64,000 nt of DNA, taken from IMG/VR virus record IMGVR_UViG_2974569193_000001, positions 44,702-108,701 of that record, one strand, 5' to 3'. The number at the start of each line of letters is the position of its first letter. Positions within the stretch are counted from its first letter, which is position 1. This stretch comes from a virus (taxonomy: Duplodnaviria; Heunggongvirae; Uroviricota; Caudoviricetes). Below the pieces are notes generated by a model. It saw only the letters and a list, made by a program, of their open reading frames with translations. It was not told where the DNA came from and ran no database searches. Made by a program: the position numbers and the translations under genes. Shown here one piece after another: positions 1 to 56,309 of the stretch.

Positions 1-2
1 AG

Positions 3-683
3 AACCGCATCCGCTACCGCCGCAACAACACGGCGGGGCATGCTCCCGCGACCCTGCTGCCCAACGAGATCGCGCTCAACGAGACTGACGGCCTGCTGTT
101 TACCCGCGATGGAGCCGGCGCGGTCAAGTCCACGCCGTTGGGCTTCCTGCACGGCGAAGGCCTGCCGCCGCCGGCCACGGACGATGGCAAGGTGCTGTCG
201 GGCGGCATGTCCTGGGAAACGCCGTTCACCCAGTACCTGCTTCCGGTGCGCAATGCTCCGCCGGCCGGCGCGCGCATCGCCCTGGCCGAGGGTGTGGTGG
301 GCTCCACGACCTTCACGCCGACGCTCGACGTCACCTACACCCGCCCGTTCTTCGTGGCCAAGACCATCGACATCCAGGCGCTGTCGATCGAGGTCGTGGG
401 CACGGCCGTCGCAACGGCCGAACTAGGCCTGATCGGTTGGTCGCTCGCCGGAACGCCGGGCGCGGCGATCGTCACTGGAACGGTGAGCACCAGCACGGCG
501 GGCGTCAAGTCCGCCGCTGGCACCGCCACGATCTTGACGCCGGGCTGGTACGCCGCCACCTTCAAGGTCACCGGCGCGGCGGGGGCTTCGTTCCGGGCTC
601 CCACTACCCCGACGGCGATCGCGCCGGACTTCACCACCGCGCCGGGCGCGCCCGCGCCGGTCATGGCGACCCTGGAGACCTAA
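3..683 (+). CDS. putative virion structural protein, 5'-truncated by window edge (paralogue 1 of 3)
   Basis: Frame of ORF 138-683 is open back to nt 3 (NRIRYRRNNTAGHAPATLLPNEIALNETDGLLF...). N-terminal LxxxE(I/L)xxNxxDxxL motif is shared with the next two ORFs. Confidence 0.7.
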   Translation, partial: NRIRYRRNNTAGHAPATLLPNEIALNETDGLLFTRDGAGAVKSTPLGFLHGEGLPPPATDDGKVLSGGMSWETPFTQYLLPVRNAPPAGARIALAEGVVGSTTFTPTLDVTYTRPFFVAKTIDIQALSIEVVGTAVATAELGLIGWSLAGTPGAAIVTGTVSTSTAGVKSAAGTATILTPGWYAATFKVTGAAGASFRAPTTPTAIAPDFTTAPGAPAPVMATLET

Positions 684-686
684 GGC

Positions 687-1355
687 ATGTCGACCGACAT
701 CACCATGCCGCCTGACACGACGGTGTTCGCTGACGTCAAGATCAATGGCGGCGCCGGCGCGCCCGTCGATCTGGCTGACGGCGAACTCTACATCGACGAG
801 GCGGGGCGCACGCTCTATGTCGAGACCGTGGTCGGCGTCCAACCGATCCCGCTCGACGTCGGCTATATCCCGCGCCGGCCCAGCGGTACGCCGCTCGACC
901 ACGTGGTCACCAAGACCCCCACCGGAGCCGAGTGGGGTCCGCTCCAGGGCGGCGCGGGCGGCTCGCCGTTCGATGCGGCAGAGTTCCGCGTGCCGGGCCT
1001 CGCGCCCACGGGCCTGGACACGGTCGTACTGCCGGGCGCGTCCGGTGGCATGGCTCTCTTCGAGATGCCGCTCCAGGACGTCCTCCTGAGCGTGCGTGTA
1101 CACGCCTCCGCCGGCGCCGGCGCGGTGACCCTGGGGCTCTACCCGTTCAACGGCTCCCTGGGCTCGGAAATCTTCGCCCAGACCCTGACGTTTACCGCGC
1201 CCGAGACCCAACTGGTGCCTGTCTCCCTGGCCCTGACGCCGGGGGTGTACGCCTGGGTCTGGACGGGGGCGTCCTCCGTGACCCTGGACGCGGTCAAGGG
1301 CTCCCTGCCCTGGGCGACGAGCGAGCAGGTCCATCCCGTGGCGATGAAGTTCTAA
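687..1355 (+). CDS. putative virion structural protein (paralogue 2)
   Basis: 222 aa, phage-like codon usage, motif LADGELYIDEAGRTLY. Stop overlaps next start (TAATG). Confidence 0.75.
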   Translation: MSTDITMPPDTTVFADVKINGGAGAPVDLADGELYIDEAGRTLYVETVVGVQPIPLDVGYIPRRPSGTPLDHVVTKTPTGAEWGPLQGGAGGSPFDAAEFRVPGLAPTGLDTVVLPGASGGMALFEMPLQDVLLSVRVHASAGAGAVTLGLYPFNGSLGSEIFAQTLTFTAPETQLVPVSLALTPGVYAWVWTGASSVTLDAVKGSLPWATSEQVHPVAMKF

Positions 1356-2131
1356 TGGCCATCCAGAACCCCCACTCCACCACGCCGGGCGTCATGCCCC
1401 ACCTGACGCCGGGCGAGATCGGCGTCAACAAGGCCGACGACATCCTCTGGTTCCGGTCCGAGGGCCGCCGCGTGCCGATCATCCTGAGCGATCTGGATCG
1501 GGCTCCGCCGCTCGACGGCCTGACGGGCGCGCCGCTGACCCTGGAAGGCGGACAGCCGATCTGGAACGCGCATCTGGCCCCGTCCTCCGTGGTCAATGGT
1601 CAGGTCAAGGTCGATCTGCCGCCGGCGACGGGCCTGCACGCCATGCCCAGCGTCCTGCTGCAAGGCCTGGGCGCCGATCGCGCCCTGGCGGCCAACGATC
1701 TGGACCTCTCGCCCTTCTACGTCCGGTCCGACTCCATCACCCTGACCCAGTTGGCGTTCAGCGTGCGCTCGGCCGGCGCGCCGGCGATGCGGGTGGGGAT
1801 CGTCGACAGCTTCGGTGTGGTCCAGGCCGACATTCTCGTCGCCGCGCCCGTGGTCGGGGCCAATGTGGTCAATCTCTCGCCGGTGCTGACGCTCCAGCGC
1901 GGGGTCTACCGCACGATCCTGGCGACCACCGGCGCGGTGACGATCGGCGTGGTCACGGGCGCGCGCATGGAGCAGGGCTGGGACATCATCGGGGACACGC
2001 CGTCCTTCATCCACGGCTACAGCGGCTCGAAGAACACCGGCGGCGGGATCGGCAGCTTGCCGGGCCTGACCGCGCGTCGCTCCGGTGTGCCGGGGCAGGA
2101 TCATGCGGTTCTGATGCGCTGGACGGCGTAG
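1355..2131 (+). CDS. putative virion structural protein (paralogue 3)
   Basis: ATG at 1355 inside listed ORF 932-2131; motif LTPGEIGVNKADDILWF; C-terminal beta-rich region resembles that of ORF 3-683. Confidence 0.75.
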   Translation: MAIQNPHSTTPGVMPHLTPGEIGVNKADDILWFRSEGRRVPIILSDLDRAPPLDGLTGAPLTLEGGQPIWNAHLAPSSVVNGQVKVDLPPATGLHAMPSVLLQGLGADRALAANDLDLSPFYVRSDSITLTQLAFSVRSAGAPAMRVGIVDSFGVVQADILVAAPVVGANVVNLSPVLTLQRGVYRTILATTGAVTIGVVTGARMEQGWDIIGDTPSFIHGYSGSKNTGGGIGSLPGLTARRSGVPGQDHAVLMRWTA

Positions 2132-2233
2132 CGGGGAGAACCTGATGGGGCTTTGTATCGCCGGAGGGCGAGGGACGGGTCGCTCCCCGGCGGCCCACCC
2201 GCTTCCTATAGACCGGCTCGCCTCGGCCCGCAA

Positions 2234-2248
2234 GACGTGAATCTTGAC
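2234..2248 (+). promoter_or_regulatory. GTCGTGAATCTTGAC-family promoter element (variant GACGTGAATCTTGAC)
   Basis: 14/15 match to the recurrent motif; upstream of ORF 2303 and the first tRNAs. Confidence 0.65.
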
Positions 2249-2302
2249 ATGGTGGAAGATCGAGGTTAACCTACGCGCTAATCTGGAGTTTCGAGCGCCA
2301 CC

Positions 2303-2572
2303 ATGGCCGAGCTTGTCCGCATCTATCACCCCGAGACGAACGAGCCGTTCGACGTGATTCCGTCGACCGCCGAACGTCTGCGCCTGGGTGATGGGCACGA
2401 CGGGCTGGTCTGGCTCTCGCAGCCCTTCGAGCGCGTCGCCGTCGAAGCCGCGCCGGAAGCCCCCAAGGGGCGAGGTCGTAAGCGCGTCAGCGCGATCGTC
2501 GAGGCGGAAGACGCCGAATCCGACGGGTCGTGGCGTGATGCGCCGACCGAGGAAGACCTCGAAGCCGCGTAA
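2303..2572 (+). CDS. hypothetical protein, acidic C-terminus
   Basis: 89 aa ORF, GGAG SD-like sequence upstream, downstream of the promoter motif. Confidence 0.75.
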   Translation: MAELVRIYHPETNEPFDVIPSTAERLRLGDGHDGLVWLSQPFERVAVEAAPEAPKGRGRKRVSAIVEAEDAESDGSWRDAPTEEDLEAA

Positions 2573-2616
2573 GGCGCTTCGACTTCCACTCTGCTGAAAT
2601 TCGGTCTCAGTCCCAT

Positions 2617-2692
2617 GTCGGTCTAGCTCATGGGGTAGAGCGGCGGTCTCCAAAACCGCGCGTGGCAGGTTCGAGTCCTGCGTCCGGCGCCA
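2617..2692 (+). tRNA. tRNA-Trp(CCA)
   Basis: Anticodon arm GCGGT-CTCCAAA-ACCGC; T arm GCAGG-TTCGAGT-CCTGC; encoded CCA. Confidence 0.9.
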
Positions 2693-2696
2693 TTTC

Positions 2697-2771
2697 GCAT
2701 CCGTAGTATATAGGTGATTACAGCGCGTTGCCAACGCGTAGAGTCGGGTTCGAGTCCCGACGGATGCTCCA
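2697..2771 (+). tRNA. tRNA-Gly(GCC)
   Basis: Loop TTGCCAA; acceptor GCATCCG/CGGATGC; TCCA end. Confidence 0.9.
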
Positions 2772-2777
2772 ATCCAT

Positions 2778-2851
2778 GCGGGTATAGCTCAAAGGGAGAG
2801 CTACTGCCTTCCAAGCAGAAGATGCGAGTTCGAGCCTCGCTATCCGCTCCA
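2778..2851 (+). tRNA. tRNA-Gly(TCC)
   Basis: Loop CTTCCAA; canonical D and T arms; TCCA end. Confidence 0.92.
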
Positions 2852-2855
2852 AACT

Positions 2856-2951
2856 CGTGGTGAGGTGAGAACGCCCTCCTCATGCACCGCTTCGGCGGTA
2901 AAGTAGGCTCCGGCCGAAGAGATGCGGGAACAGGGGACCCCGCCACCACGA
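2856..2951 (+). ncRNA. candidate multibranch structured RNA
   Basis: Closing stem TCGTGGTG/CACCACGA; inner ACCGC-TTCG-GCGGT and GCGGG/CCCGC hairpins; no ORF. Confidence 0.45.
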
Positions 2952-2955
2952 ACGA

Positions 2956-3099
2956 AGTGCGCCCCAGGTGCGCCTCTGACCGAGAAAGCCCGCTGGCCGT
3001 GGGTGAAGCGTAGGGTCAAGCGTCTGGGTCCCCGTCCTCCAGGACCGGCGAAGGCCATATGCGCCGAATTCCTGGTCAGGATCGCATGAGGGGAGCGCT
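2956..3099 (+). ncRNA. candidate long-hairpin RNA
   Basis: AGTGC..CCCC..GTGCG..CTGACC pairs with GGTCAG..CGCAT..GGGG..GCGCT; contains TAGGGTCAAGCGTC, which recurs at 57373. Confidence 0.45.
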
Positions 3100-3159
3100 G
3101 GCGCCGGCCCAGCAGGGGAGGGTTAAAAGCCCAGCCGGCATTTTTCTTCAACAACAAGC

Positions 3160-3186
3160 TTGACAGCCGTCGAGTTTCGTGAGAGC
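3160..3186 (+). promoter_or_regulatory. sigma70-type promoter A
   Basis: TTGACA-N13-GTGAGAGC, same layout as the promoter at 3776. Confidence 0.6.
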
Positions 3187-3198
3187 CTCTTCAACATT

Positions 3199-3261
3199 AT
3201 GACGCACCTCCTGACCCGTTACGAACGCGAGGCCACCGGCCTCGATACCACCACCGCCTAA
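3199..3261 (+). CDS. candidate leader peptide A (MTHLLTRYEREATGLDTTTA)
   Basis: 20-codon ORF just after promoter A; overlaps alternative hairpins (3228-3244 vs 3238-3282); precedes tRNA-Glu and tRNA-Asp. Confidence 0.45.
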   Translation: MTHLLTRYEREATGLDTTTA

Positions 3262-3293
3262 AAGCGGTTTTGGTCCGAGGCCTCTTGTCATGT

Positions 3294-3371
3294 GGCCCGG
3301 TCGTCTAGCGGTTTGCAGGATACCTGACTTTCAATCAGGTGAGCGGAGTTCGAGTCTCCGTCGGGCTTCCA
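3294..3371 (+). tRNA. tRNA-Glu(TTC)
   Basis: CCTGA-CTTTCAA-TCAGG; T arm CGGAG/CTCCG; CCA. Confidence 0.92.
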
Positions 3372-3392
3372 TCCCCAACTCCTTCTGAGCTT

Positions 3393-3467
3393 GGTGCGTT
3401 CGTATATCGGTTAATACTCCCGCCTGTCGAGCGGAGAAGAGGGGTTCGACTCCCCTACGCACCGCCA
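3393..3467 (+). tRNA. tRNA-Asp(GTC)
   Basis: Loop CTGTCGA; acceptor GGTGCGT/ACGCACC; G73; CCA. Confidence 0.92.
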
Positions 3468-3534
3468 GCTTCCCTCGTATCAATCCAGGTTCCCAGCGCC
3501 GGCTTTTCCGCGCGCCTGGATGCACGAGGCTTCC

Positions 3535-3756
3535 ATGTTCTTCGATACCTCCTCGCAGTCGAGCGCCGCGCTCCTGCGTCACGTCTCCACCCAATCTCCG
3601 TATGCGGAAGCGGCTCGCACCGAGTTGCTGTCCCGAGGCCTCGTTCCGCTCCTGACGCGGTTCAACGGCTGGCGCCTCGCCCCGAGCGTGCCGTTTCCGC
3701 AGCACCTCATCCCGCGCCCCGATCCGCTCGCGAAGTTCACGTGGCGGGCGGGATGA
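3535..3756 (+). CDS. small hypothetical protein
   Basis: Within listed ORF 3520-3756; GAGG precedes ATG 3535; 73 aa. Confidence 0.5.
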   Translation: MFFDTSSQSSAALLRHVSTQSPYAEAARTELLSRGLVPLLTRFNGWRLAPSVPFPQHLIPRPDPLAKFTWRAG

Positions 3757-3775
3757 AAAATATTCACCACGACAC

Positions 3776-3802
3776 TTGACATCCGTTGGGAGTTGTGAGA
3801 GC
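3776..3802 (+). promoter_or_regulatory. sigma70-type promoter B
   Basis: TTGACA-N13-GTGAGAGC. Confidence 0.6.
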
Positions 3803-3897
3803 TTATGGACTGTCACGGATCACGACACTCCTCGGAGTGCAAAAGCGTGATCCTTCGTTATTCACGGCCGCCAGCGGGTGGCCAGTCGAGAGTTGTC

Positions 3898-4035
3898 ATG
3901 TTCGCCTTGTCGCATCTCAGCCTGAGCACGAAAGCCGCCTCCCCGGCGTCGCTTTCGCTTGCCCTGCTGGCGACGGCCACGAAGCCCTCGACCAAGCCGA
4001 CCACCTCGGCCTCGCACTCGACGGAAACCCTCTAG
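3898..4035 (+). CDS. attenuator leader peptide B, 45 aa (MFALSHLSLSTKAASPASLSLALLATATKPSTKPTTSASHSTETL)
   Basis: GAGAG SD-like sequence upstream. 42 of 45 residues are A/L/S/H/T/K/P, the amino acids of the 14 downstream tRNAs. Confidence 0.75.
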   Translation: MFALSHLSLSTKAASPASLSLALLATATKPSTKPTTSASHSTETL

Positions 4036-4138
4036 GGTTTTTCGTCTCGGGTGCAGGCCTTGGAGCCGCACCCGCTACCTACATCCTGTAGACCTAGCGC
4101 AAGGCGGCTCCTCACCAGGGAGACCGCCTTTTCTTTTT
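4008..4138 (+). terminator. attenuator B: alternative hairpins plus intrinsic terminator (4101-4138)
   Basis: Terminator AAGGCGGCTCC..GGAGACCGCCTT+TTCTTTTT. Antiterminator GGAGCCGC(4062-69):GCGGCTCC(4104-11). Sequestering hairpin CGGGTGC(4048-54):GCACCCG(4067-73). Leader 4008-4026 can pair with 4040-4059. Confidence 0.75.
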
Positions 4139-4150
4139 CGCGTTGATCAT

Positions 4151-4226
4151 CGGGGTGTAGCTCAGTCGGTAGAGCGCTCGGTTCGGGACCGAGAGGCCGT
4201 GGGTTCAAGTCCCGCCACCCAGACCA
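4151..4226 (+). tRNA. tRNA-Pro(CGG)
   Basis: CTCGG-TTCGGGA-CCGAG; canonical D arm. Confidence 0.92.
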
Positions 4227-4233
4227 ACGCCAT

Positions 4234-4310
4234 CGGGATGTAGCTCAGTTTGGGAGAGCGCGCGGCTGGGGGCCGCGAGGCCGCAGGTTCAAGTCCTGCC
4301 ACCCCGACCA
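4234..4310 (+). tRNA. tRNA-Pro(GGG)
   Basis: CGCGG-CTGGGGG-CCGCG; canonical arms. Confidence 0.92.
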
Positions 4311-4315
4311 ACAAC

Positions 4316-4388
4316 GCTGTTGCGCGTGGTTTCGCGCCCACCCCTTGGTATGGGGTGGTAGAAGGTTCAATTCCTTCCAGCAGCACCA
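4316..4388 (+). tRNA. tRNA-Thr(GGT), atypical (D arm abuts acceptor stem)
   Basis: Acceptor GCTGTTG/CAGCAGC; CACCCC-TTGGTAT-GGGGTG; T arm GAAGG-TTCAATT-CCTTC; ACCA. Confidence 0.75.
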
Positions 4389-4393
4389 GCAAC

Positions 4394-4463
4394 GCCGATG
4401 CCTCTGGGAGGACGCGCCTTTCGTAAGGGTGCGAGGTGGGTTCAATCCCCACTTTCGGCTCCA
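4394..4463 (+). tRNA. tRNA-Thr(CGT), atypical (shrunken D arm)
   Basis: Thr-like acceptor start GCCGAT; loop TTCGTAA; D arm CCTC-TGG-GAGG; TCCA; 70 nt. Confidence 0.7.
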
Positions 4464-4504
4464 GCATAGCGAGATCAAGGAGAAATCGCAAGCAGACAGA
4501 ACAT

Positions 4505-4587
4505 GGATCGGGAACGTAAAGCTAGGCCGGGCCAGCAGTGGGCTCTTAATCCACGCGTAAGGGGTTCGACTCCCTCCCGATTCTCCA
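4505..4587 (+). tRNA. tRNA-Lys(CTT), atypical (long 8/9 connector and D arm)
   Basis: GTGGG-CTCTTAA-TCCAC; acceptor GGATCGG/CCGATTC; TCCA. Confidence 0.75.
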
Positions 4588-4592
4588 ACAAT

Positions 4593-4682
4593 GCACAAGT
4601 GACCCGAGCGGCGAAGGGCGTCGACTTTTAATCGACTAGGCGTCCAGCCTCACCGAGGGTTCGAGTCCCTCCTTGTGCTCCA
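4593..4682 (+). tRNA. tRNA-Lys(TTT) with long variable arm (Tyr-like body)
   Basis: GTCGA-CTTTTAA-TCGAC; V arm AGGC-GTCCA-GCCT; D region CCCGAGCGGCGAAGGG; perfect acceptor stem; TCCA. Confidence 0.85.
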
Positions 4683-4685
4683 TGT

Positions 4686-4772
4686 GCGAATGTGGCGGAA
4701 CTGGTAGACGCGCCGGCCTCAGGTGCCGGTACCCTTCGGGGCGTGTGGGTTCGAGTCCCACCTTTCGTACCA
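4686..4772 (+). tRNA. tRNA-Leu(CAG)
   Basis: CCGGC-CTCAGGT-GCCGG; class II body; ACCA. Confidence 0.92.
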
Positions 4773-4779
4773 ACGACAT

Positions 4780-4867
4780 GCCTTGCTGGCGGAAGTGGTA
4801 GACGCACTGTTCTCAAAAAGCAGGCCGGGCGACCGGGCTCTGGGTTCGATCCCCAGGTGAGGCACCA
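4780..4867 (+). tRNA. tRNA-Leu(CAA)
   Basis: CTGTT-CTCAAAA-AGCAG; class II body; ACCA. Confidence 0.92.
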
Positions 4868-4874
4868 AGACTGA

Positions 4875-4962
4875 TGCGAAGTGGCGGAAACTGGTAGACG
4901 CACCGGCATGAGAGGCCGGCGCCCTTCGGGGCGTGAGGGTTCGAGTCCCTTCTTCGCGACCA
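4875..4962 (+). tRNA. tRNA-Leu(GAG)
   Basis: CCGGC-ATGAGAG-GCCGG; class II body; ACCA. Confidence 0.9.
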
Positions 4963-4964
4963 AT

Positions 4965-5030
4965 GTCCCGATCGGGAAGATTCCAGGCGGCGCGGCGCGC
5001 GCGACACCGGAATCGTCCCGATCGGGAAGA
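4965..5030. repeat. direct repeat of 16 nt GTCCCGATCGGGAAGA (palindromic core TCCCGATCGGGA)
   Basis: Copies at 4965-4980 and 5015-5030, flanking a GC-rich spacer. Confidence 0.8.
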
Positions 5031-5042
5031 CGACGAGATTAT

Positions 5043-5113
5043 GCTGATCGCCGCTGGGCGGGGAGCGGGTTGTGTCCCCGCTAGGCACGGTTCGATCCCG
5101 TGGGTCAGTACCA
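5043..5113 (+). tRNA. tRNA-His(GTG), no G-1, A73, small D arm
   Basis: AGCGGG-TTGTGTC-CCCGCT; T arm CACGG/CCGTG; acceptor GCTGATC/GGTCAGT; ACCA. Confidence 0.75.
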
Positions 5114-5118
5114 GATAC

Positions 5119-5189
5119 GGGGTATGCGCAGGGCGCAGCCATCCTTTGCAAGGACGGCGGGGTGGGTTCGAGTCCCACATACTCCACCA
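5119..5189 (+). tRNA. tRNA-Ala(TGC)
   Basis: Loop TTTGCAA; G3-U70 pair; ACCA. Confidence 0.85.
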
Positions 5190-5193
5190 ACAT

Positions 5194-5283
5194 GGAAGGT
5201 CAACCGGACAGGCGCGCCGGGACTGCCTCGAAAGCAGATCGCACTCTCCGGGGTGTGGGGATCGAGACCTCGGCCTTCCTCCA
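5194..5283 (+). tRNA. tRNA-Ser(CGA)
   Basis: Loop CTCGAAA; long V arm; atypical D and T loops. Confidence 0.8.
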
Positions 5284-5287
5284 ACAT

Positions 5288-5377
5288 GGTGAGCGAACGG
5301 GACAGGCGTGCCCGGTCCGCCTGGAAAGCGCGACGCACTCTCCGGGGTGTGGGATTCGAGTTCTCCGCTCACCGCCA
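5288..5377 (+). tRNA. tRNA-Ser(GGA)
   Basis: Loop CTGGAAA; long V arm shared with the neighbouring Ser tRNAs; GCCA. Confidence 0.8.
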
Positions 5378-5381
5378 ACAT

Positions 5382-5471
5382 GGTAGGCGAACCGGACAGG
5401 CGTGCCGGCGCCGTTTGCTAAACGAGCGGCACTCTCCGGGGTGTGGGATTCAAGCTCTCCGCCTACCGCCA
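5382..5471 (+). tRNA. tRNA-Ser(GCT)
   Basis: Loop TTGCTAA; long V arm; GCCA. Confidence 0.8.
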
Positions 5472-5479
5472 TTTTGATG

Positions 5480-5508
5480 TTGACGCCGGCCCCTGCCGAT
5501 GTCATACG
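5480..5508 (+). promoter_or_regulatory. putative promoter
   Basis: TTGACG-N17-CATACG. Confidence 0.5.
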
Positions 5509-5516
5509 TCACGACA

Positions 5517-5727
5517 GAGCGAACGCCCTTGGCCGGGTTGGTGGATGTGCCGGTTGCATCACGCCCCGTCGAGCCCTAGTAGCTCTTGAGTGGAGTTTTC
5601 CGCCTCCCTCCCTAACAAGGAGGCGGACCCCAACATCGCGATCCAGTGATCGTCGGCGACGGGCGCCGTTAGAGCCCCCTTGCGCGCGGAAACGCTGCGG
5701 AGGGGATCGTCCCGACCACATTCGCTC
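5517..5727 (+). ncRNA. candidate structured RNA (~210 nt)
   Basis: Closing stem GAGCGAA/TTCGCTC; inner stems CCCGTCG/CGACGGG and TCCGCCTCC/GGAGGCGGA; GAAA-capped hairpin; follows a promoter; no credible ORF. Confidence 0.5.
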
Positions 5728-5763
5728 GCCGGCAAAAATCTTCGCCGGCGTTAACTTTTCTTC

Positions 5764-5792
5764 TTGACCTTTGAAAGGTCCTGGTGTAGTTT
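5764..5792 (+). promoter_or_regulatory. sigma70-type promoter C
   Basis: TTGACC-N17-TAGTTT; predicted start ~5799-5800, so the leader ORF would be leaderless. Confidence 0.7.
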
Positions 5793-5799
5793 CCCCGTC

Positions 5800-5895
5800 A
5801 TGAGCAAGTCGTACCGCCAATTCGTGCAGATTCAGGTCGTCCGGAATTTCCGGGCGGGCCGTTCGCGCATGGATGATGGCGGGACCTTTATCTAG
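5800..5895 (+). CDS. attenuator leader peptide C, 31 aa (MSKSYRQFVQIQVVRNFRAGRSRMDDGGTFI)
   Basis: Core YRQFVQIQVVRNFR uses exactly the seven amino acids of the 12 downstream tRNAs. Confidence 0.8.
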   Translation: MSKSYRQFVQIQVVRNFRAGRSRMDDGGTFI

Positions 5896-5960
5896 GTCCA
5901 GACACCTCAACCCAATTCGCGAAAGGCCCGCCTGGACACCCAGGCGGGCCTTTTTCTTTT
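5849..5960 (+). terminator. attenuator C: antiterminator 5849-5867:5918-5936 and intrinsic terminator 5922-5960
   Basis: Terminator AAAGGCCCGCCTGG-ACAC-CCAGGCGGGCCTTT+TTCTTTT. TCCGGGCGGGCCGTTCGCG pairs with CGCGAAAGGCCCGCCTGGA (18 bp with one G-U, plus one mismatch). Confidence 0.85.
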
Positions 5961-6016
5961 CCGTTTCGCTGATCCGAGGAGATCGCAGATGAACAACGGG
6001 GGCTAGTCCTCCACAT

Positions 6017-6101
6017 GGATGCTTAAAGCTGGAGGGCTCCAGCCGGGGGCTGTAAACCCCCTCTCTTCGGAGGAGTGGTTCGATCCCACAAGCATCCACC
6101 A
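6017..6101 (+). tRNA. tRNA-Tyr(GTA), over-long D stem
   Basis: GGGG-CTGTAAA-CCCC; V arm with TTCG loop; ACCA. Confidence 0.85.
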
Positions 6102-6102
6102 T

Positions 6103-6177
6103 GGTCATGTAGCTGAGACAGATTAGCGCCGGCGTGAAATCCCGGAGACGAGGATGCGAGCACCTCCTAGACCACCA
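6103..6177 (+). tRNA. tRNA-Phe(GAA), degenerate T arm and acceptor stem
   Basis: Loop GTGAAAT; D arm GCT..AGC; non-canonical T loop; ACCA. Confidence 0.6.
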
Positions 6178-6182
6178 ACAAC

Positions 6183-6258
6183 GCCCGATGAGCCAGATGG
6201 GAAGGCACCGCTTTGACATGGCGGCATTGAGAAGGTTCGATTCCTTCATCAGGCACCA
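6183..6258 (+). tRNA. tRNA-Val(GAC)
   Basis: Loop TTGACAT; T arm GAAGG/CCTTC; ACCA. Confidence 0.88.
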
Positions 6259-6263
6259 ACCAC

Positions 6264-6339
6264 GCAAGTGTAGCTCAGTTGGTAGAGCAGCGGACCGATA
6301 ATCCGCCCGTCCCTGGTTCGAGTCCAGGCATTTGCACCA
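6264..6339 (+). tRNA. tRNA-Ile(GAT), C33
   Basis: GCGGA-CCGATAA-TCCGC; canonical arms. Confidence 0.88.
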
Positions 6340-6346
6340 TTTCTGA

Positions 6347-6421
6347 TGTGGCATAGCTCAGGGGTAGAGCGTCCGCTTGATAAGCGGGAGGTCGTGGGTT
6401 CGAAACCCCCTGCCACTACCA
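6347..6421 (+). tRNA. tRNA-Ile(GAT)
   Basis: Loop TTGATAA; canonical D arm; ACCA. Confidence 0.88.
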
Positions 6422-6452
6422 ATTCCAGGCCGGCGGAGAGAGCCGGTCCTGT

Positions 6453-6526
6453 AGGCGATTAGCTCAATGGTAGAGCGGGGGTGCCACAAACCTCAGGCGT
6501 AGGTTCGATTCCTACATCGCCCACCA
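6453..6526 (+). tRNA. tRNA-Val(CAC), C33
   Basis: GGGGT-GCCACAA-ACCTC; canonical D and T arms. Confidence 0.8.
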
Positions 6527-6531
6527 ATTGT

Positions 6532-6605
6532 TGAGGGTTCGTCTAATGGTAGGACGCCTGGGTCTGGTCCAGGTAATCTAGGTTCGAGTCCTAGCTCCTC
6601 ATCCA
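6532..6605 (+). tRNA. tRNA-Gln(CTG)
   Basis: CCTGG-GTCTGGT-CCAGG; U1-A72. Confidence 0.9.
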
Positions 6606-6611
6606 AGTTGT

Positions 6612-6685
6612 TCTCGGGTGGTCTAATGGTAGGACGGCTGGTTTTGGTCCAGCAGGTTGGGGTTCGATTCCTTGGCCGAGAGCCA
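6612..6685 (+). tRNA. tRNA-Gln(TTG)
   Basis: GCTGG-TTTTGGT-CCAGC; U1-A72; G73. Confidence 0.9.
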
Positions 6686-6702
6686 ACTGCTTTTGAGTTT
6701 AT

Positions 6703-6777
6703 TCCAGTCAATGCACAAGGTGTGCAGCGGCACTGTTAATGCCTGTGAGCCCGGTTCGATTCCGGGGTCTGGAGCCA
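6703..6777 (+). tRNA. tRNA-Asn(GTT)
   Basis: GGCA-CTGTTAA-TGCC; G73; CCA. Confidence 0.9.
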
Positions 6778-6802
6778 ACACGCCGGCCTAGGCCGGTCAT
6801 GC

Positions 6803-6885
6803 GCCCTGGTAACCGAGGGGGATTACGAATCCCTTAGTCGTAGCAGGAGTTGAAAAGGGTGGTTCGAATCCACTCCAGGGTGCCA
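6803..6885 (+). tRNA. tRNA-Arg(ACG)-like, D arm absent, ~22-nt extra region
   Basis: Acceptor GCCCTGG/CCAGGGT; GGGGA-TTACGAA-TCCCT; T arm GGTGG-TTCGAAT-CCACT; GCCA. Confidence 0.6.
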
Positions 6886-6892
6886 AATCTAT

Positions 6893-6975
6893 AGCGCGCA
6901 GGCCGAGCAGGATCATCGTCAGGCGTCGCCCTCCGAAGGCGAAGAGGCCCGGTTCGAGTCCGGGGCGCGCTGCCA
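6893..6975 (+). tRNA. tRNA-Arg(CCG), enlarged D loop
   Basis: TCGCC-CTCCGAA-GGCGA; perfect acceptor stem; GCCA. Confidence 0.85.
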
Positions 6976-6978
6976 CAT

Positions 6979-7056
6979 GCGCGGGTAGCTCAATGGAGCC
7001 AGAGCAGCCGTCTTCTACACGGTGGGTTGGGGGTTCGAGTCCCTCCCCGCGTGCCA
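6979..7056 (+). tRNA. tRNA-Arg(TCT)
   Basis: CCGT-CTTCTAC-ACGG; canonical arms; GCCA. Confidence 0.9.
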
Positions 7057-7393
7057 AACTTGACGGGCGATGCCGAATCGCTCAACGTCGACCCTGGCTC
7101 TCGGTGGGCCACGATTGCACGTCGCCGGTGCCCTGGCCGTACACCCAGGGAGCAGCCCGGCGGCGTTCCAACACGGTTTCTGGACGATCTTCGAACGCGG
7201 CTTGCCGTGGAGGGGTGCTGGATGGGGCCGAGGTAGGAGGAACCATCGAGCATCTCCTCATCCTGGACTGGGCCTCCTGGGGGCTCCTCCGGGTCAAACA
7301 GGGCCTGACCCGACCCCGGAGATGCGCCGACCTTGATCACCCAGGATCGCTGGGTCGGTGGAAAGGGTCTGAAATTTTTCTGGCTCTTATGTG

Positions 7394-7521
7394 TTGACAC
7401 GCATTTCAGAGCCGGCTACAACCCTCCTCGTAGAGCGGCGCTGGGGCCAGGAGGCCCCGTCGTTGAGCCTCTGCGTTGTCGTCAGAAACGGCCCGCCGGC
7501 TTCCCGCCGCGCGGGCCGTTT
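7394..7521 (+). ncRNA. promoter plus candidate ~95-nt sRNA ending in a terminator-like hairpin
   Basis: TTGACA-N17-TACAAC (7394-7422); hairpin GGGGCC/GGCCCC; stem AAACGGCCCGC/GCGGGCCGTTT (7486-7521). Confidence 0.5.
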
Positions 7522-7562
7522 CGTCATGGGCGTCATGCGACCTTGAGTCCACCGTGGGTAGT

Positions 7563-7577
7563 GTCGTGAATCTTGAC
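7563..7577 (+). promoter_or_regulatory. GTCGTGAATCTTGAC promoter element
   Basis: Exact motif, upstream of ORF 7647. Confidence 0.7.
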
Positions 7578-7646
7578 TTTCGACCACCTTTCCGGTAGCT
7601 TCCCCTTCATCACCAACGCTCATAAGTCGGGGACTAGAGAGCCGCA

Positions 7647-8045
7647 ATGTCGCAAGACCACACCGGCTCCGCAACGCAGGGCCAAGAACACATCTTCCGT
7701 AAGCTGGATGAGCTTGGCGCAATGCACATGCGTACCCGCGAGGACATGGCCGAGGTCAAGGAGAAGGTGAAGACCATCGCCTCCTCTCAGGAGCGCTTTG
7801 AGCGCGACGTCTGGCGTGAAATGGATATTCGCCACACCGAGACCAAGCAGGCCCTGGCCGATATCAAGGATCACACCAACGAGCGGATCAGCGAGATCGA
7901 GTCCAAGGTGAACACCATCCGCGAGGAGCGGATCGCCGAAAAAGCCCAATGGCGCGGCCCCGAAAAGGTCATCGCCGCCATCGTCGCCCTGGCGGGCGGC
8001 GTCACGGCGATCGGCGTGCTCTGGAGCATCTTCAAGCCGCACTAA
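7647..8045 (+). CDS. hypothetical protein, coiled coil plus C-terminal TM segment
   Basis: 132 aa; VIAAIVALAGGVTAIGVLWSIF. Confidence 0.8.
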   Translation: MSQDHTGSATQGQEHIFRKLDELGAMHMRTREDMAEVKEKVKTIASSQERFERDVWREMDIRHTETKQALADIKDHTNERISEIESKVNTIREERIAEKAQWRGPEKVIAAIVALAGGVTAIGVLWSIFKPH

Positions 8046-8148
8046 TCCTACAGTCAAGCTTGTTCCCCTGCGGCCAGAAGTCGCGCTTCTTGACACCCCT
8101 GGTCGGCCCGAGCTAACCATATGCCATCTGTTCCTGGGGAGTTCCTAG

Positions 8149-8370
8149 ATGGCTGCTGCGCTTACCCTCGTCTCGCGTGAGACGGATTATTCGACCACCA
8201 CGGAAATCGATCCGGACGCGGCGCATCAGCGCCTCATCCTGGTCCTGAACACCGCCGCAGAAGCGGGCCTTGGTGACATGACGTTGGAAGTCAAAGAGGA
8301 GATCGAGGCCCTGCTCAAGCAGGCGTCTATCGAACTCTCGAATTGCCGGATCGTGGGGGGAGTTCCTTAA
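8149..8370 (+). CDS. hypothetical protein
   Basis: 73 aa; GGGAG SD. Confidence 0.7.
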   Translation: MAAALTLVSRETDYSTTTEIDPDAAHQRLILVLNTAAEAGLGDMTLEVKEEIEALLKQASIELSNCRIVGGVP

Positions 8371-8392
8371 TCGCCATCCCAGAGGGAGCGAC

Positions 8393-9259
8393 GTGTCCGA
8401 GTCTTCCGAATTCAACCCGCTCGACGAAACCCAGTTCCCTCCTCGCCTCACCAAGGCGGCTGCGCGGCAAGCGCGGCGCCTGGAGAAAAGCCAGAAAAAG
8501 GACCCCACGGCGAACAAGCCGAACTACAAGGCGCTCGAAGCCAAGACTGAACGCCAGAAGCGCTACATCCAGGCGCTGAAGGCCGGCGAGAGCGCCATCG
8601 CTATCGGTGGGGCCGGCACGGGAAAGACCTACATCCCGTCCCGGCTCTTCGCCAAGAAGCTGATCGAAGGCAAGACCGAACGCCTGATCATCGCCCGCGT
8701 TACCGCCTCGCGGGCCAAACACGCCCTGGGCTTCCTGCCCGGCAAGCTCGAAGCCAAGCTGGCCCCCTGGCTGGTCCCGGTGATCGAGGGCGTCAAGGCG
8801 GAAATGAACGCCCAGACCTACACGCAGTTGCAAGAGGCCGGCAAGATCGAGTTCGCCTCCTTCGAGCACATGCGTGGCCGGACCTTCGGCGAGTGCTGCG
8901 TCCTCCTGGACGAGGCGCAGAACGCCGACTACAAGGACCTGAAGATGGTCCTGACCCGCTGGGGTGAAAACGCCCAGTACGCGGTCACCGGCGACGTCGA
9001 CCAGATCGACGTGGACGACTCCGGGCTGGACACGGTCATCGACATCGTCGAGGCCAACGACATCCCCATCCACGTCATTGAGTTCACCGACGAGGACGTC
9101 GTGCGCTCGCCCATGGCTAAGGCCTGGGTCAAGGCCTTCTCCGCCCATGAGGGCAAGGACGGCCGCCCCCGGCGCTTCCACCGCCCGGCTGTCAGGAATC
9201 TTGACGCTTTGCCGGTGTTCATCGATAATGGCCATGTCACGAAATCCGTGGCATCGTGA
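8393..9259 (+). CDS. phoH: PhoH-family ATPase
   Basis: GGAGTGKT Walker A, HMRGRTF, LLDEAQN, TGDVDQID, VVRS. Confidence 0.95.
   Translation: MSESSEFNPLDETQFPPRLTKAAARQARRLEKSQKKDPTANKPNYKALEAKTERQKRYIQALKAGESAIAIGGAGTGKTYIPSRLFAKKLIEGKTERLIIARVTASRAKHALGFLPGKLEAKLAPWLVPVIEGVKAEMNAQTYTQLQEAGKIEFASFEHMRGRTFGECCVLLDEAQNADYKDLKMVLTRWGENAQYAVTGDVDQIDVDDSGLDTVIDIVEANDIPIHVIEFTDEDVVRSPMAKAWVKAFSAHEGKDGRPRRFHRPAVRNLDALPVFIDNGHVTKSVAS
9191..9205 (+). promoter_or_regulatory. promoter motif variant GTCAGGAATCTTGAC inside the phoH 3' end
   Basis: 13/15 match, ahead of the head-tail operon. Confidence 0.55.
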
Positions 9260-9276
9260 CAAAGACGTAGAGCACC

Positions 9277-9798
9277 ATGGCCTTCACCTTCGTTGTTGAG
9301 ACCGGCGCCGGCGACCCGGCCGCGAACTCGTACTGCGATGTGCAGTTCGCGGACGACTACATCTACGCCAACGTCTACTCGAACACCGCCTGGGCCGCCT
9401 TGGAGGACGAGGACAAGGAACGCTTCCTTGTCCGCGCCTCCAAGTACCTGGACCGGACGGTGCAATGGGCGGGGGAGAAGGTCGAGGAGGACTCCGGCCT
9501 GCGCTGGCCGCGCGCCGGGGTCTACGATGTCGATGGCTTCCTGATCCCCAGCGATGCCATCCCGCAGCAGTTGATGGAGGCCACCGCCGAAATGGCGGCG
9601 GCGCTCCTCAACAACGACTGGACGTCGCCGCAGACCACGCGCGGCATGAAGGAAATCCAGGTCGACGTCATCGAACTGAAGTTCGACACCGAGGTCCAGC
9701 GCGGCTCGATGCCGGACATCGTCATGCAAATCCTGGAGGGCCTGGGCGTGGTCAAGACCGGCCAGCGCCCGGCCTTCAAGAAGATCATCCGTCACTAA
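9277..9798 (+). CDS. head-tail adaptor/connector (DnaT-like fold family)
   Basis: ANSY..FADDY..WAAL..LVRASKYLD..LRWPR pattern; position. Confidence 0.7.
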   Translation: MAFTFVVETGAGDPAANSYCDVQFADDYIYANVYSNTAWAALEDEDKERFLVRASKYLDRTVQWAGEKVEEDSGLRWPRAGVYDVDGFLIPSDAIPQQLMEATAEMAAALLNNDWTSPQTTRGMKEIQVDVIELKFDTEVQRGSMPDIVMQILEGLGVVKTGQRPAFKKIIRH

Positions 9799-10190
9799 TG
9801 GCGCTCGAAGCGTTCATCCAGTCGCAGGTCCTGGTCGCCTTCAACCAGCTTGACGACCTCTGCAAGCGCTGGACCTACGTCCAGCGTTCGGGAGTCGGGG
9901 TGCGCGACATCGAGAGCGGCAAGACGACCTATCCGACCACCGAGATCGACATCCCCAAGGCGGTCCGGGTGCGCTTCAAGAAGGACGAGAAGGACAAGAC
10001 CGGGCAGGTCCTGGTCGGCGAGAAGCTCCTCTTCCCGCGCGTCTATCTGCCCAAGGCCTTCGAAACCAAGACGTCCGACTACCTGATCGACGAAGCCGGC
10101 GTGGTCTGGGAGATCATGAGCGACCTGTCGGACCCGGCCAAGGCCGTGGCGATCCTCCAGGTGCGGTCCTCGCGGATCGTGACGCCGTGA
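9798..10190 (+). CDS. head closure/neck protein (putative)
   Basis: ATG overlaps the previous TAA; 130 aa; synteny. Confidence 0.65.
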   Translation: MALEAFIQSQVLVAFNQLDDLCKRWTYVQRSGVGVRDIESGKTTYPTTEIDIPKAVRVRFKKDEKDKTGQVLVGEKLLFPRVYLPKAFETKTSDYLIDEAGVVWEIMSDLSDPAKAVAILQVRSSRIVTP

Positions 10191-10659
10191 AGGTTGGCGG
10201 CGCCAAGCTGAACTTCTACACCGACGGGAACCTGGAGGCGGCCTTCAAGCGCTTCTTCGCCACCGCCGAGAAGCGTTACGACGAGCGCGCCGACCGGCTG
10301 CTGATCCGGCTGAACGAATTGATCCTCTCGCGGACCCCGGTGTGGGAAGGCGATACGATCCACAACTGGCGCTGGTCCACCCGCGCGCCCGACATGCGTC
10401 ACGAAGACCCGGTTGGGGCGTTGATCCCGGCCGGACGAGCGAGATGCCCCTGGGCACCGAACCTCGTCGCCATGCCAACGAGACCCGCCCCCGTCAATCG
10501 CTGGCCGGCGCTCTGCGCGCCAAGGAGCCGATCGACATCTACCTGACCAACACCGCCGAGAGCGCCGTTGATCTGGAATATGGCCTGCTGCCGACCAAGG
10601 CCCAGAGCCGTAACAGCATGGGGATGGTTCGAATCTCGGTTAAAGAGGTGTTCGGGTGA
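10187..10659 (+). CDS. tail completion/neck protein, split by an apparent 1-nt frameshift near 10410-10420
   Basis: Coding-like frame of ORF 10187 (..MRHEDPVG) continues in the frame of ORF 10342 (VDPGRTSEMPLG..SVKEVFG) across GGTTGGGGCG. Confidence 0.6.
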
Positions 10660-10730
10660 TCCCCGCGTTCATCATTCTGCCGCGCGTCTATCTCGCGGCG
10701 TGGCTTTCGTTCTGGCTCGGGGAGGACTAG
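10656..10730 (+). CDS. 24-aa hydrophobic micro-ORF (MIPAFIILPRVYLAAWLSFWLGED)
   Basis: GTGA overlap with the upstream stop; its TAG abuts the next ATG; fills the gap exactly. Confidence 0.5.
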   Translation: MIPAFIILPRVYLAAWLSFWLGED

Positions 10731-11186
10731 ATGCTCGAACATGACATGCTCCGTCAAGTCCTGGAGCAGCAGGCGATCGCCGCCGCTGTCCTGGCCAGCC
10801 TCGACCTGAAGTTCGACAATTCCGAGTTCGTGCAGCCCGCCGACGGCCGCCATTGGGCCGAGTTTTGGCATCGCACCGGCGCGACCAAGGCCTGCGAGGT
10901 CGCCGGACCGAAGGGCTACGAAAAGACCGCCGGGCTGTTGCAGTTCACCCTAAAGGCTCCCGAGGAAGAGGGCAATGGCGCGATCATCCGCGCCGGCGGC
11001 CTCGTCAAGCGGGCACTGAACCGCAAGCAGTTGGTGATTCCGCCCGACGGCTGGGTCACGCTCGATCCGATCTCGGTCGACGCCCACGGCAAGCCGATCG
11101 ACGGCTTCTTCAACGTCATCGTCTGGGCGACGTTCGATTTCTACCACCGCGATCCCGACGCGCCCGATCATTGGCTCCGGGGTTGA
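10731..11186 (+). CDS. tail terminator-like protein
   Basis: 151 aa; GGAG SD; immediately before the major tail gene. Confidence 0.65.
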   Translation: MLEHDMLRQVLEQQAIAAAVLASLDLKFDNSEFVQPADGRHWAEFWHRTGATKACEVAGPKGYEKTAGLLQFTLKAPEEEGNGAIIRAGGLVKRALNRKQLVIPPDGWVTLDPISVDAHGKPIDGFFNVIVWATFDFYHRDPDAPDHWLRG

Positions 11187-11210
11187 CGGCAGCGCTTCAC
11201 GGCTGCTATA

Positions 11211-11225
11211 GTCGTGAATCTTGAC
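11211..11225 (+). promoter_or_regulatory. GTCGTGAATCTTGAC promoter element
   Basis: Exact motif, upstream of the major tail gene. Confidence 0.7.
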
Positions 11226-11331
11226 ATTCCGCGAAGTCTAGGGTAGGTTCACCACACTTGCGATGCAGGGCCGGGTCGGCGCGCTCGCTACCCTTCCTTT
11301 TGTCACAAAACCCTGGATTGGTGACCTGCAC

Positions 11332-51132: not shown

Positions 51133-52192
51133 GGAGCACCTTGAGAATCTGGTCGCCGATCCAGTCCACCATCGGGACGATCAAGCTGTTGCCGATGATG
51201 GTCCGGCGCTCGGTGTCGGAGAGGCCGGGCACGTCGGTATGGGTCCCCGACATCCCCATCAGGCGCTCGCACTCGGACACCGAATGGTTGCGGAGACGCC
51301 AGTCCTCGCCCTCCTTGACCAGGAGCATGCCGATGCTGGAGCCGCCGGCGGCGGTGCGCAGGCAGTTGGCGATCTGCCCGCCTTCTTCGATCTGCTGACC
51401 CGAGAAGCCGTTGATCACCCGCCCCCGGACGGCGACGGTGCGAGCCCGAAAGACAGGGCGGCCATCAATTCCGGGGACAACGTCCGCCCCGCGCTCAAAG
51501 CATTGCTCAAGAGCGTCGCACGGCGCGACGGGCTCATGTACAATCCGGCGGGGATCGAACCCGGAGCGTCGAGTACACGCGACAACGACAAGCCGCCGGC
51601 GGGACTGCGGGATTCCGAACTCAGGGCCGTCGAAGACGCGCCAAGCGATGGCGCGACGGGGTCCCAGCACGAAACCACAGTCCGGCCACCGACGCCCTGC
51701 CGCGTCGTCGTCACCTTCGGGCTTTCCGTAGGGGTAGAGGGGCTCGCGCTCTCCGGCGAGACGGCCGAGGAACTGTCCAAAGGCGTTGTCCTTGTTGGTG
51801 AGGAGCTTCGGGACGTTCTCGAAGCAGAAGATCGGAGGATCGACCTCGTCGACCACGCGCAGCCCCGAGAGCGTCAACTGCCCGCGCGGGTCATCCAGGC
51901 CCAGGCCCTTGCCGGCCTCGCTATAGGGCTGGCACGGGAACGAGGCCCACAGGACGTCGACCTCGCCCTCGTGGGCCGTGCCGTCGATCTGTTCGAGGTC
52001 CCCCAGGTTGGGGACGCTCGACCAGTGGTGCTTCAGCAGCCGGATCGGCGCCGAGGCGATTTCGCTGAAGAAGCGGGCCTTGCCGCCCTTACGCTCCCAG
52101 GCGTAGGACGGGACGTCCGCGCCGGAGCAAAGGGTCGCAAAGGTCCACGGCTGGACGTCGGGGACGTCCGCCTGGGGAGGGATCGAGGGCAT
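51119..52192 (-). CDS. DNA (cytosine-5) methyltransferase
   Basis: LCSGA, FPCQPYS, FENVP, PQSRRR, ECERLMG, GNS. Confidence 0.9.
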   Translation of the reverse strand: MPSIPPQADVPDVQPWTFATLCSGADVPSYAWERKGGKARFFSEIASAPIRLLKHHWSSVPNLGDLEQIDGTAHEGEVDVLWASFPCQPYSEAGKGLGLDDPRGQLTLSGLRVVDEVDPPIFCFENVPKLLTNKDNAFGQFLGRLAGEREPLYPYGKPEGDDDAAGRRWPDCGFVLGPRRAIAWRVFDGPEFGIPQSRRRLVVVACTRRSGFDPRRIVHEPVAPCDALEQCFERGADVVPGIDGRPVFRARTVAVRGRVINGFSGQQIEEGGQIANCLRTAAGGSSIGMLLVKEGEDWRLRNHSVSECERLMGMSGTHTDVPGLSDTERRTIIGNSLIVPMVDWIGDQILKVLHEAA

Positions 52193-56307: not shown

Positions 56308-56309
56308 AA

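Follow-up and report, generated by a model that had tools for sequence, protein, structure and literature searches.

Ribosome-mediated transcription attenuators such as those of ilvGMEDA (Ile/Leu/Val), thr (Thr/Ile), trpL, hisL, leuL and pheL are built from a promoter-proximal short open reading frame (ORF) that carries the regulatory codons, followed by mutually exclusive antiterminator and terminator helices. An intrinsic terminator lies just 5' of the regulated genes, and in the ilv and thr attenuators several amino acids are sensed by one leader. In this study, we analysed modules with these features in the tRNA array of a phiCbK-like Caulobacter phage. The array occupies 2617-7056 on the plus strand of a 64,000-nucleotide stretch (the window), which corresponds to 44702-108701 of the 220,934-bp phage genome (IMG/VR record IMGVR_UViG_2974569193_000001). 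Two modules in this array, B and C, and probably a third, A, are very likely ribosome-mediated transcription attenuators controlling phage tRNA operons. Module C shows the classic layout of the enterobacterial attenuators, with helices 1:2, 2:3 and 3:4. Unlike those attenuators, the modules are phage-borne and would regulate tRNA genes instead of biosynthetic enzymes; only tRNA genes lie downstream of the leaders, and no amino acid biosynthesis or synthetase gene is placed under their control. Each leader lists six to eight amino acids and nearly every isoacceptor codon of its block. In addition, leader C is apparently leaderless, and module B has four competing helices with its control codons spread over 40 codons.

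The tRNA genes of phages are commonly seen as a fixed supplement to codon usage or as a counter to tRNA-targeting defences, and to our knowledge the control of their expression is largely unknown. As in the pheST attenuator and the T-box, the supply of charged tRNA would here feed back on a component of decoding through premature termination. However, the T-box binds uncharged tRNA directly and requires no translation, and pheST senses one amino acid and yields a synthetase, whereas the products here are the tRNAs themselves. In a cmscan search of 2400-7400 with E-values up to 1, neither the T-box (RF00230) nor the leader families of Rfam (Trp_leader, His_leader, Thr_leader and Leu_leader) were matched; the matches were to tRNAs and skipping-rope RNA, the rest being at chance level. 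The leaderless polycysteine short ORFs described in mycobacteria (bioRxiv 10.1101/834739) likewise open the transcript, contain cognate codons in a row and adjust downstream expression to amino acid supply. They respond to a single amino acid and act on biosynthetic or operonic genes of bacteria, and a leaderless start of the phage ORF is deduced from promoter spacing. No published description of attenuators before tRNA genes was found in the literature searched, the coverage of which was incomplete, and the terms 'attenuat' and 'leader' are absent from the genome papers of the phages phiCbK, Lacusarx and vB_EliS-L02 (PMC3556154, PMC5648845, PMC9127768). The phiCbK annotation marks the terminators and lists leader B as a hypothetical protein.

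Modules B and C share one order of elements: a promoter-like site, a short ORF, competing helices, a U-tailed hairpin and, 12-50 nucleotides (nt) further on, tRNA genes. The elements and the blocks that follow them are these:

3776-3804, plus strand: promoter-like site of module B, with TTGACA at 3776-3781, a 17-nt spacer and GAGCTT; read by eye, kept in close relatives and resembling the site of module A
3898-4035, plus strand: leader B ORF of 45 codons, in which residues 3-42 (3904-4023) are solely A, L, S, H, T, K and P
4101-4130, plus strand: hairpin of the module B terminator (-19.5 kcal/mol), with its U-tract at 4129-4138 (TTTTCTTTTT)
4151-5471, plus strand: block B of 14 tRNA genes, Pro x2, Thr x2, Lys x2, Leu x3, His, Ala and Ser x3 (ARAGORN at default or relaxed thresholds, Rfam)
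5764-5799, plus strand: promoter-like site of module C, with TTGACC at 5764-5769, a 17-nt spacer, TAGTTT at 5787-5792, 7 nt and the ATG
5800-5895, plus strand: leader C ORF of 31 codons, in which codons 5-18 (5812-5853) spell YRQFVQIQVVRNFR
5921-5954, plus strand: hairpin of the module C terminator (-31.1 kcal/mol), with a U-tract to 5960 (TTTTTCTTTT)
6010-7056, plus strand: block C of 12 tRNA genes, Tyr, Phe, Val, Ile x2, Val, Gln x2, Asn and Arg x3 (ARAGORN, Rfam, orthology)

A reading of this DNA made from the letters alone (the sequence-only reading) had described an array interrupted by modules of promoter, short ORF, hairpins and U-tailed terminator. Such modules could indeed be located, at A, B and C, with the U-tracts of B and C ending at 4138 and 5960; the corresponding leader terminators of phiCbK lie at 49745-49769 and 51465-51502 of JX100813.1. 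Module B has a 5' untranslated region of about 90 nt, with GAGAG 8-12 nt upstream of the ATG. The distance from the U-tract to the first tRNA gene is 12 nt in block B and about 50 nt, to tRNA-Tyr, in block C. In neither module does a TTGAC motif occur in this interval. Because no promoter-like site lies between terminator and tRNA genes, the blocks are expected to depend on read-through. A scan with an E. coli-type consensus calls none of the three promoter-like sites of the array. The distance from TTGAC to the ATG of leader C is 36-37 nt in 16 of 16 phages, the ATG standing 7 nt after a TAnnnn hexamer. The same geometry (-35 element, 17-nt spacer, -10-like hexamer, 7 nt, ATG) recurs in three phages before a further leader, X3, described below. 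This promoter spacing alone suggests that the leader C mRNA is leaderless and starts at the ATG. In public RNA-seq contigs from one study (runs X2-X5) that map to 3100-7100, long phiCbK-like contigs cover the whole array; contigs carry no information on transcript ends, strand or level.

The amino acid sets used for comparison with the leaders were fixed from the tRNA genes, independent of the leaders. ARAGORN at default settings called 22 tRNAs in window positions 1-12000. Relaxed thresholds added Thr(cgt) at 4393-4462, Lys(ctt) at 4507-4583, Ser(cga/gga/gct) at 5194-5471, Phe at 6103-6177, Arg at 6803-6885 and Arg(ccg) at 6893-6975, and Tyr(gta) at about 6010-6092 was placed by alignment with the annotated tRNA-Tyr of the phages Gurke and Bajun. 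The 'Ile(aat)' called by ARAGORN at 6703-6777 was assigned to Asn(gtt) because its anticodon loop reads CTGTTAA. Non-canonical tRNAs, in which the D arm is reduced or the T loop is odd, are numerous in the array (4393-4583, 5194-5471, 6010-6092 and 6803-6975); these were missed by default ARAGORN and Rfam and were recovered at relaxed thresholds or through orthology only. The Rfam scores of several tRNAs are poor. The orthologous genes of block B carry tRNA annotation in relatives. The resulting sets are P, T, K, L, H, A and S for block B and Y, F, V, I, Q, N and R for block C. Thus the 14 and 12 tRNAs and the two amino acid sets given in the sequence-only reading were right.

Leaders B and C are written in the amino acids of the blocks that they precede. 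When the 221-kb genome was scanned in six frames, leader B gave the longest run of set B residues (40 residues, the next being 23) and leader C the longest run of set C residues (14 residues, the next being 10), and both record runs stand directly upstream of their own tRNA block. In leader B, 42 of the 44 residues come from set B and one from set C. Leader C takes 18 of its 30 residues from set C, including the uninterrupted run of 14. None of 200,000 permutations of the amino acid labels matched the observed own-set score. The match extends to codons. A cognate codon is present in the own leader for 14 of the 14 tRNAs of block B and 11 of the 12 of block C; the leaders include the two codon classes of each of Gln, Val, Lys, Thr and Pro, three classes each for Leu and Ser, and two for Arg. 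Codons readable by the leader's own block make up 36 of 45 in leader B, compared with a maximum of 32 in any 45-codon window of 169 real genes, and 14 of 14 in the leader C run, compared with a maximum of 11 in windows of the same genes.

The leaders are conserved as ORFs across the Caulobacter and Brevundimonas phages, and their absence from relatives, which the sequence-only reading had named as a point that would speak against it, was not observed. In megablast, the 4-kb stretch under study shares 93.8% identity with Caulobacter phage CcrRogue and about 85% with phiCbK. All three leader ORFs are found in Shapirovirus, Poindextervirus, Colossusvirus and Bertelyvirus and in four Brevundimonas phage lineages (Dolichocephalovirinae). 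The sequence of leader B has diverged strongly and its composition has been kept in 10 phages of at least six lineages, with 33-42 in-set residues of 38-44. The value is lower in Gurke (29 of 44), where a Thr tRNA was apparently missed by relaxed ARAGORN. In Bertelyvirus, block B ends in tRNA-Trp and the leader B run contains Trp. The run of leader C comprises 14-15 residues in every clade, in shuffled order, as in YRNNVRQIRVRQFN and YRQNVQNIRVVRFYR, and always contains all of, and nothing but, Y, R, Q, F, V, I and N. One copy of the leader C element is present in each of 43 phage records, and against the Bertelyvirus genomes it is the sole part of the 4 kb that megablast detects. In the leader C alignment, the ATG and the stop codon column are invariant, and all indels within the ORF are of 3 nt, compared with 1-4 nt downstream. 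A pattern scan of IMG/VR with the conserved leader C motif returned only known relatives and two unrelated terminators. No leaders of this kind were found in the inspected gaps of the unrelated tRNA-rich phages RcXuper and DSS3_MAL1.

More distant relatives with the same kind of modules divide the amino acids differently. The Erythrobacter phages XM05 and vB_EliS-L02 and the Sphingobium phage Lacusarx, all of Sphingomonadales hosts, carry three blocks and leaders (L024 to L027 denote the sequences compared):

Block X1: tRNAs for P, M, V, I, A and N
X1 leader, L026:5724-5810 and L025:2228-2323 (minus strand): a run of 17-19 residues of V, I, A, M, N and P
Block X2: tRNAs for K, G, D, E, R and F
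X2 leader, L026:7315-7377, L025:1185-1247 (minus strand) and L027:5983-6042: a core like GFTKRDRREGDERGF
Block X3: tRNAs for S, Y, L, T, H, Q, C and W
X3 leader, L024:154-234, L026:8846-8929 and L027:7310-7378: spelled in T, Q, L, H, Y, C, W and S

No fewer than ten amino acids belong to another block than in the window, and the composition of the leaders has changed with them: P and A join V, I and N; K, R, F and G join D and E; and Y, Q, W and C join S, L, T and H. Own-set residues number 55 of 74, 57 of 72 and 35 of 39 in X1, X2 and X3, scores reached by none of 200,000 permutations of the amino acid labels; in the Lacusarx X3 leader, 20 of 21 residues are in the set. The comparison proposed in the sequence-only reading, whether leader composition tracks tRNA gain and loss, was thus borne out both by the close relatives and by these re-divided sets. 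By eye, the peptide ends are similar to leaders C, A and B, which suggests that the Sphingomonadales and Caulobacter leaders are of common descent. In X2 and X3, the segment directly after the leader stop codon is a copy of a terminator 3' arm and can pair with the 5' arm across the first tRNA; the energies of this antiterminator-like duplex are -14 to -16 kcal/mol, and GCG/CGC changes to GTG/CAC in step between XM05 and Lacusarx. XM05 carries a two-piece (permuted) transfer-messenger RNA (tmRNA) of alphaproteobacterial type after tRNA-Trp, at the end of X3 (L024 1714-2118; Rfam 99.9 and 85.2 bits). An annotated tmRNA also lies near the array of Lacusarx, and an RtcB-like tRNA ligase near the arrays of both XM05 and Lacusarx.

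The RNA of both modules can form mutually exclusive helices. Those of module C are:

5835-5960, plus strand: switch region of module C, with three mutually exclusive helices
5835-5845 with 5849-5860, plus strand: helix 1:2 (-16.8 kcal/mol)
5850-5867 with 5918-5935, plus strand: antiterminator 2:3 of 18 bp (-35.4 kcal/mol as a duplex)
5921-5935 with 5940-5954, plus strand: terminator helix 3:4 (-31.1 kcal/mol)

The 5' strand of this antiterminator is a near copy of the terminator 3' arm. The layout is of the trp type, in that the control run overlaps with region 1 and precedes the antiterminator segment. In an alignment of 15 phages, helices 1:2, 2:3 and 3:4 are paired in 90%, 83% and 95% of cells and contain 3, 6 and 5 pairs altered on both sides. 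None of 2000 column shuffles reached the observed pairing, and slid controls gave 24-67%. Changes are linked across regions 1-4 (alignment columns 51/57/149/157 and 61/145/161), a pattern expected only under selection on all three pairings. Module B is a chain of four alternative helices:

4008-4138, plus strand: switch region of module B
4008-4059, plus strand: P1, a long hairpin whose loop holds the stop codon (-32.3 kcal/mol)
4048-4074, plus strand: P2, the competitor of P1 (-18.1 kcal/mol)
about 4074-4098, plus strand: P3, enclosed by the antiterminator
4062-4069 with 4104-4111, plus strand: antiterminator (-27.6 kcal/mol together with P3)

Covariation in B is limited to one compensatory pair, in P3, in a consensus fold of seven relatives; close relatives are almost invariant here. 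The GCACTC/GGGTGC/GCACCC triplet of this module is also found in Bertelyvirus. The fold z-scores of the leader RNAs are -5.7 and -4.9.

From this architecture, the following mechanism can be proposed. The promoter would start a transcript that opens with the short ORF, which in C is apparently leaderless, and the codons of the ORF would stand for the amino acids, and for nearly all isoacceptor codons, of the downstream tRNAs. The RNA within and after the ORF would fold either as an intrinsic terminator or as an antiterminator that uses the upstream copy of the terminator 3' arm. On leader C, a ribosome of normal speed would cover the antiterminator segment while the polymerase makes the terminator, and transcription would stop. 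On leader B, such a ribosome would melt P1, so that P2 could form and lock the antiterminator strand, leaving the terminator; a late ribosome would leave P1 intact, and the antiterminator would form. This order of events in B fits control codons that are spread over 40 codons. Scarcity of any cognate charged tRNA would make the ribosome lag, and the antiterminator would then allow the entire tRNA block to be transcribed. The net effect would be a negative feedback in the form of an OR gate over seven amino acids, in which tRNA synthesis is set by decoding demand. The trigger would presumably be tRNA depletion through starvation or, more speculatively, through anticodon nucleases.

Module A, which precedes the Glu-Asp block, probably represents a conserved switch of the attenuator type. 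Its elements are:

3160-3188, plus strand: promoter-like site, with TTGACA at 3160-3165 and a weak -10-like hexamer about 17 nt further on; the ATG lies 39 nt from TTGAC
3199-3261, plus strand: leader A ORF of 20 codons, with Glu codons at 3223-3225 and 3229-3231 and an Asp codon at 3244-3246
3228-3289, plus strand: switch, in which helix 1:2 (3228-3234 with 3238-3244) competes with a terminator-like hairpin 2:3 (3238-3282, then TCTTGTC)
3294-3467, plus strand: Glu-Asp block, tRNA-Glu(ttc) and tRNA-Asp(gtc) (ARAGORN, Rfam)

Leader A has been kept as an ORF of 20-21 codons in all clades, and the distance from TTGAC to the ATG is 35-39 nt in 11 phages. The energies of helices 1:2 and 2:3 are -12.8 and -26.1 kcal/mol, and the stop codon falls in the apical loop of 2:3. 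Between clades, regions 1, 2 and 3 shift jointly (GAGGCC/GGCCTC, CGGCTC/GAGCCG, GACCC/GGGTC; by eye). The terminator is weak or atypical. Comparative evidence strongly supports attenuation as the reading of modules B and C, and makes it plausible, if weakly so, for module A.

The position of the stop codons is a feature of all three leaders. Each of them (3259-3261, 4033-4035 and 5893-5895) lies in or beside the apical loop of a hairpin, and the same is seen in other clades and in XM05-type leaders. This may be a shared design that times the release of the ribosome.

Several observations weigh against the attenuator reading. Translation of the ORFs, the transcript 3' ends and regulated read-through are deduced from the sequence. 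The claim of the sequence-only reading that the leaders use only their own set held for the runs in leaders B and C, the longest in the genome, and failed for leader A, in which 3 of 19 residues (E, E and D) are cognate, a number that alone is not significant. The geometry of module A also gives no clear read-through upon stalling at Glu codons. Six of the eight Ala codons of leader B are GCC, which is outside the standard wobble of the phage Ala(tgc), and leader C contains no AGA or AGG codon for Arg(tct), so that this tRNA would go unpolled. Among the relatives, the leader B tail of Bambus contains Trp, yet tRNA-Trp is missing from its block; in Colossusvirus and Bertelyvirus, the leader B terminator lacks a clear U-tract; and no leader was seen before the Pro block (X1) of Lacusarx. 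Equilibrium folding with the ribosome footprint masked does not settle the direction of the switch. With full-length RNA the terminator always wins. When the RNA is cut before region 4, the C antiterminator fails to form only with the A site at codons 17-25, where the ribosome sits on region 2, and for leader B the outcome is independent of ribosome position. The decision between terminator and antiterminator must be kinetic. Read-through upon slow decoding was adopted from the geometry of module C, the Sphingomonadales X2 modules and the functional sense of negative feedback.

The unfixed direction leaves some room for modules that sense translation with another logic, be it general translation capacity, transcription-translation coupling, or stalling that leads to termination and hence to positive feedback. 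In module A and the Sphingomonadales X2 modules, where the hairpin begins right after the stop codon, a terminating ribosome would block it and translation would favour read-through, and the mostly non-cognate leader A likewise fits a sensor of this kind. However, a general sensor requires neither a set-restricted composition nor the tracking of re-division by that composition, the control run of C is placed as in trp-type attenuators, and positive feedback on tRNA supply would bring no evident benefit. We therefore regard this alternative as improbable.

It is less probable still that the short ORFs encode small proteins in their own right, such as a low-complexity peptide rich in Ala, Ser, Thr and Pro, with the hairpins as constitutive terminators and the tRNAs made by leaky read-through. 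Several genome annotations list leader B as a hypothetical protein (e.g. CbK_gp083), and runs rich in these four residues, of up to 23 residues, do occur elsewhere in the genome. However, the conserved trait is the composition and not the sequence, and the match to the tRNA set holds in three different leaders and under two different divisions of the amino acids. The competing helices, which covary, extend into the ORFs, and the blocks, with no promoter-like site after the terminators, rely on read-through. A similarly slight chance is given to untranslated RNA leaders with incidental reading frames, which might be protein-, tRNA- or metabolite-binding switches or signals for the processing of tRNA precursors, or might give rise to small RNAs that act in trans. 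The leaders do have a strong, conserved RNA structure, as the fold z-scores indicate, and in an alphaproteobacterium an attenuator-derived RNA can act in trans (rnTrpL, PMC6614838). Such leaders would not explain an ATG that is invariant at a fixed distance from the -10-like site, a fixed stop codon, indels that are in frame inside the ORF only, or an amino acid composition that tracks the tRNA sets; they also find no match to the T-box or another family in Rfam. A role in trans of the terminated leader RNA could exist alongside attenuation.

The rest of the array and its surroundings contain further elements. The Trp-Gly-Gly block (2617-2851, plus strand) follows directly 3' of an 89-codon ORF, and no attenuator was seen before it. 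Far from the main array, window positions 56219-57532 hold a tRNA-Cys (minus strand) and two tRNA-Met(cat), and no leader module was seen there. A skipping-rope RNA (Rfam RF02924) is present at 2855-2951 on the plus strand (48.6 bits, compared with a gathering score of 36.7), directly 3' of tRNA-Gly(tcc) and 5' of module A. Between tRNA-Asp and the module B promoter, a 78-codon ORF (3520-3756, plus strand) is conserved and is annotated in relatives as a hypothetical protein (phiCbK gp081); phiCbK has an additional 636 nt in this region, with a gene on the opposite strand. Within block B, the palindrome TCCCGATCGGGA occurs at 4966-4977 and 5016-5027 (plus strand), two copies in the 64-kb window against 0.03 expected. 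The copies are 50 nt apart, between tRNA-Leu(gag) and tRNA-His, on both sides of a GC-rich hairpin. Rogue, Bajun and Erythrobacter phage XM05 have the pair in their tRNA arrays too, at the same 50-nt spacing, and BL47 and CcrSC have single copies. Block B and the promoter of leader C are separated by about 290 nt (5472-5763, plus strand), with TTGACG at 5479 and no convincing ORF. This spacer contains an 8-bp GC hairpin, CCGCCTCC...GGAGGCGG, near 5601-5627 and a hairpin with a T-run near 5730-5760, and may encode a small RNA.

The reading of the modules as codon-listing attenuators has consequences beyond this phage. We consider it reasonably probable, with less assurance than for modules B and C themselves, that such leaders are a general form of feedback on the tRNA operons of tRNA-rich phages and that the division of amino acids among blocks co-evolves with the leaders. 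The system is present in cultured phages of the phiCbK group that infect Caulobacter crescentus, a genetic model, and is therefore directly testable; for phiCbK, stranded RNA-seq from an infection time course is already available (PMC10688885). A further use of the leaders could be as compact sensors, designed for a chosen set of codons, of how fast these are decoded. If the reading is true, this would be the first feedback of such a type on tRNA genes, acting as an OR gate over six to eight amino acids, and it would explain why the arrays are split into blocks with fixed amino acid sets. The phage would then sense and repair tRNA shortages that arise from its own codon demand, from host shut-off or from tRNA-cleaving defences.

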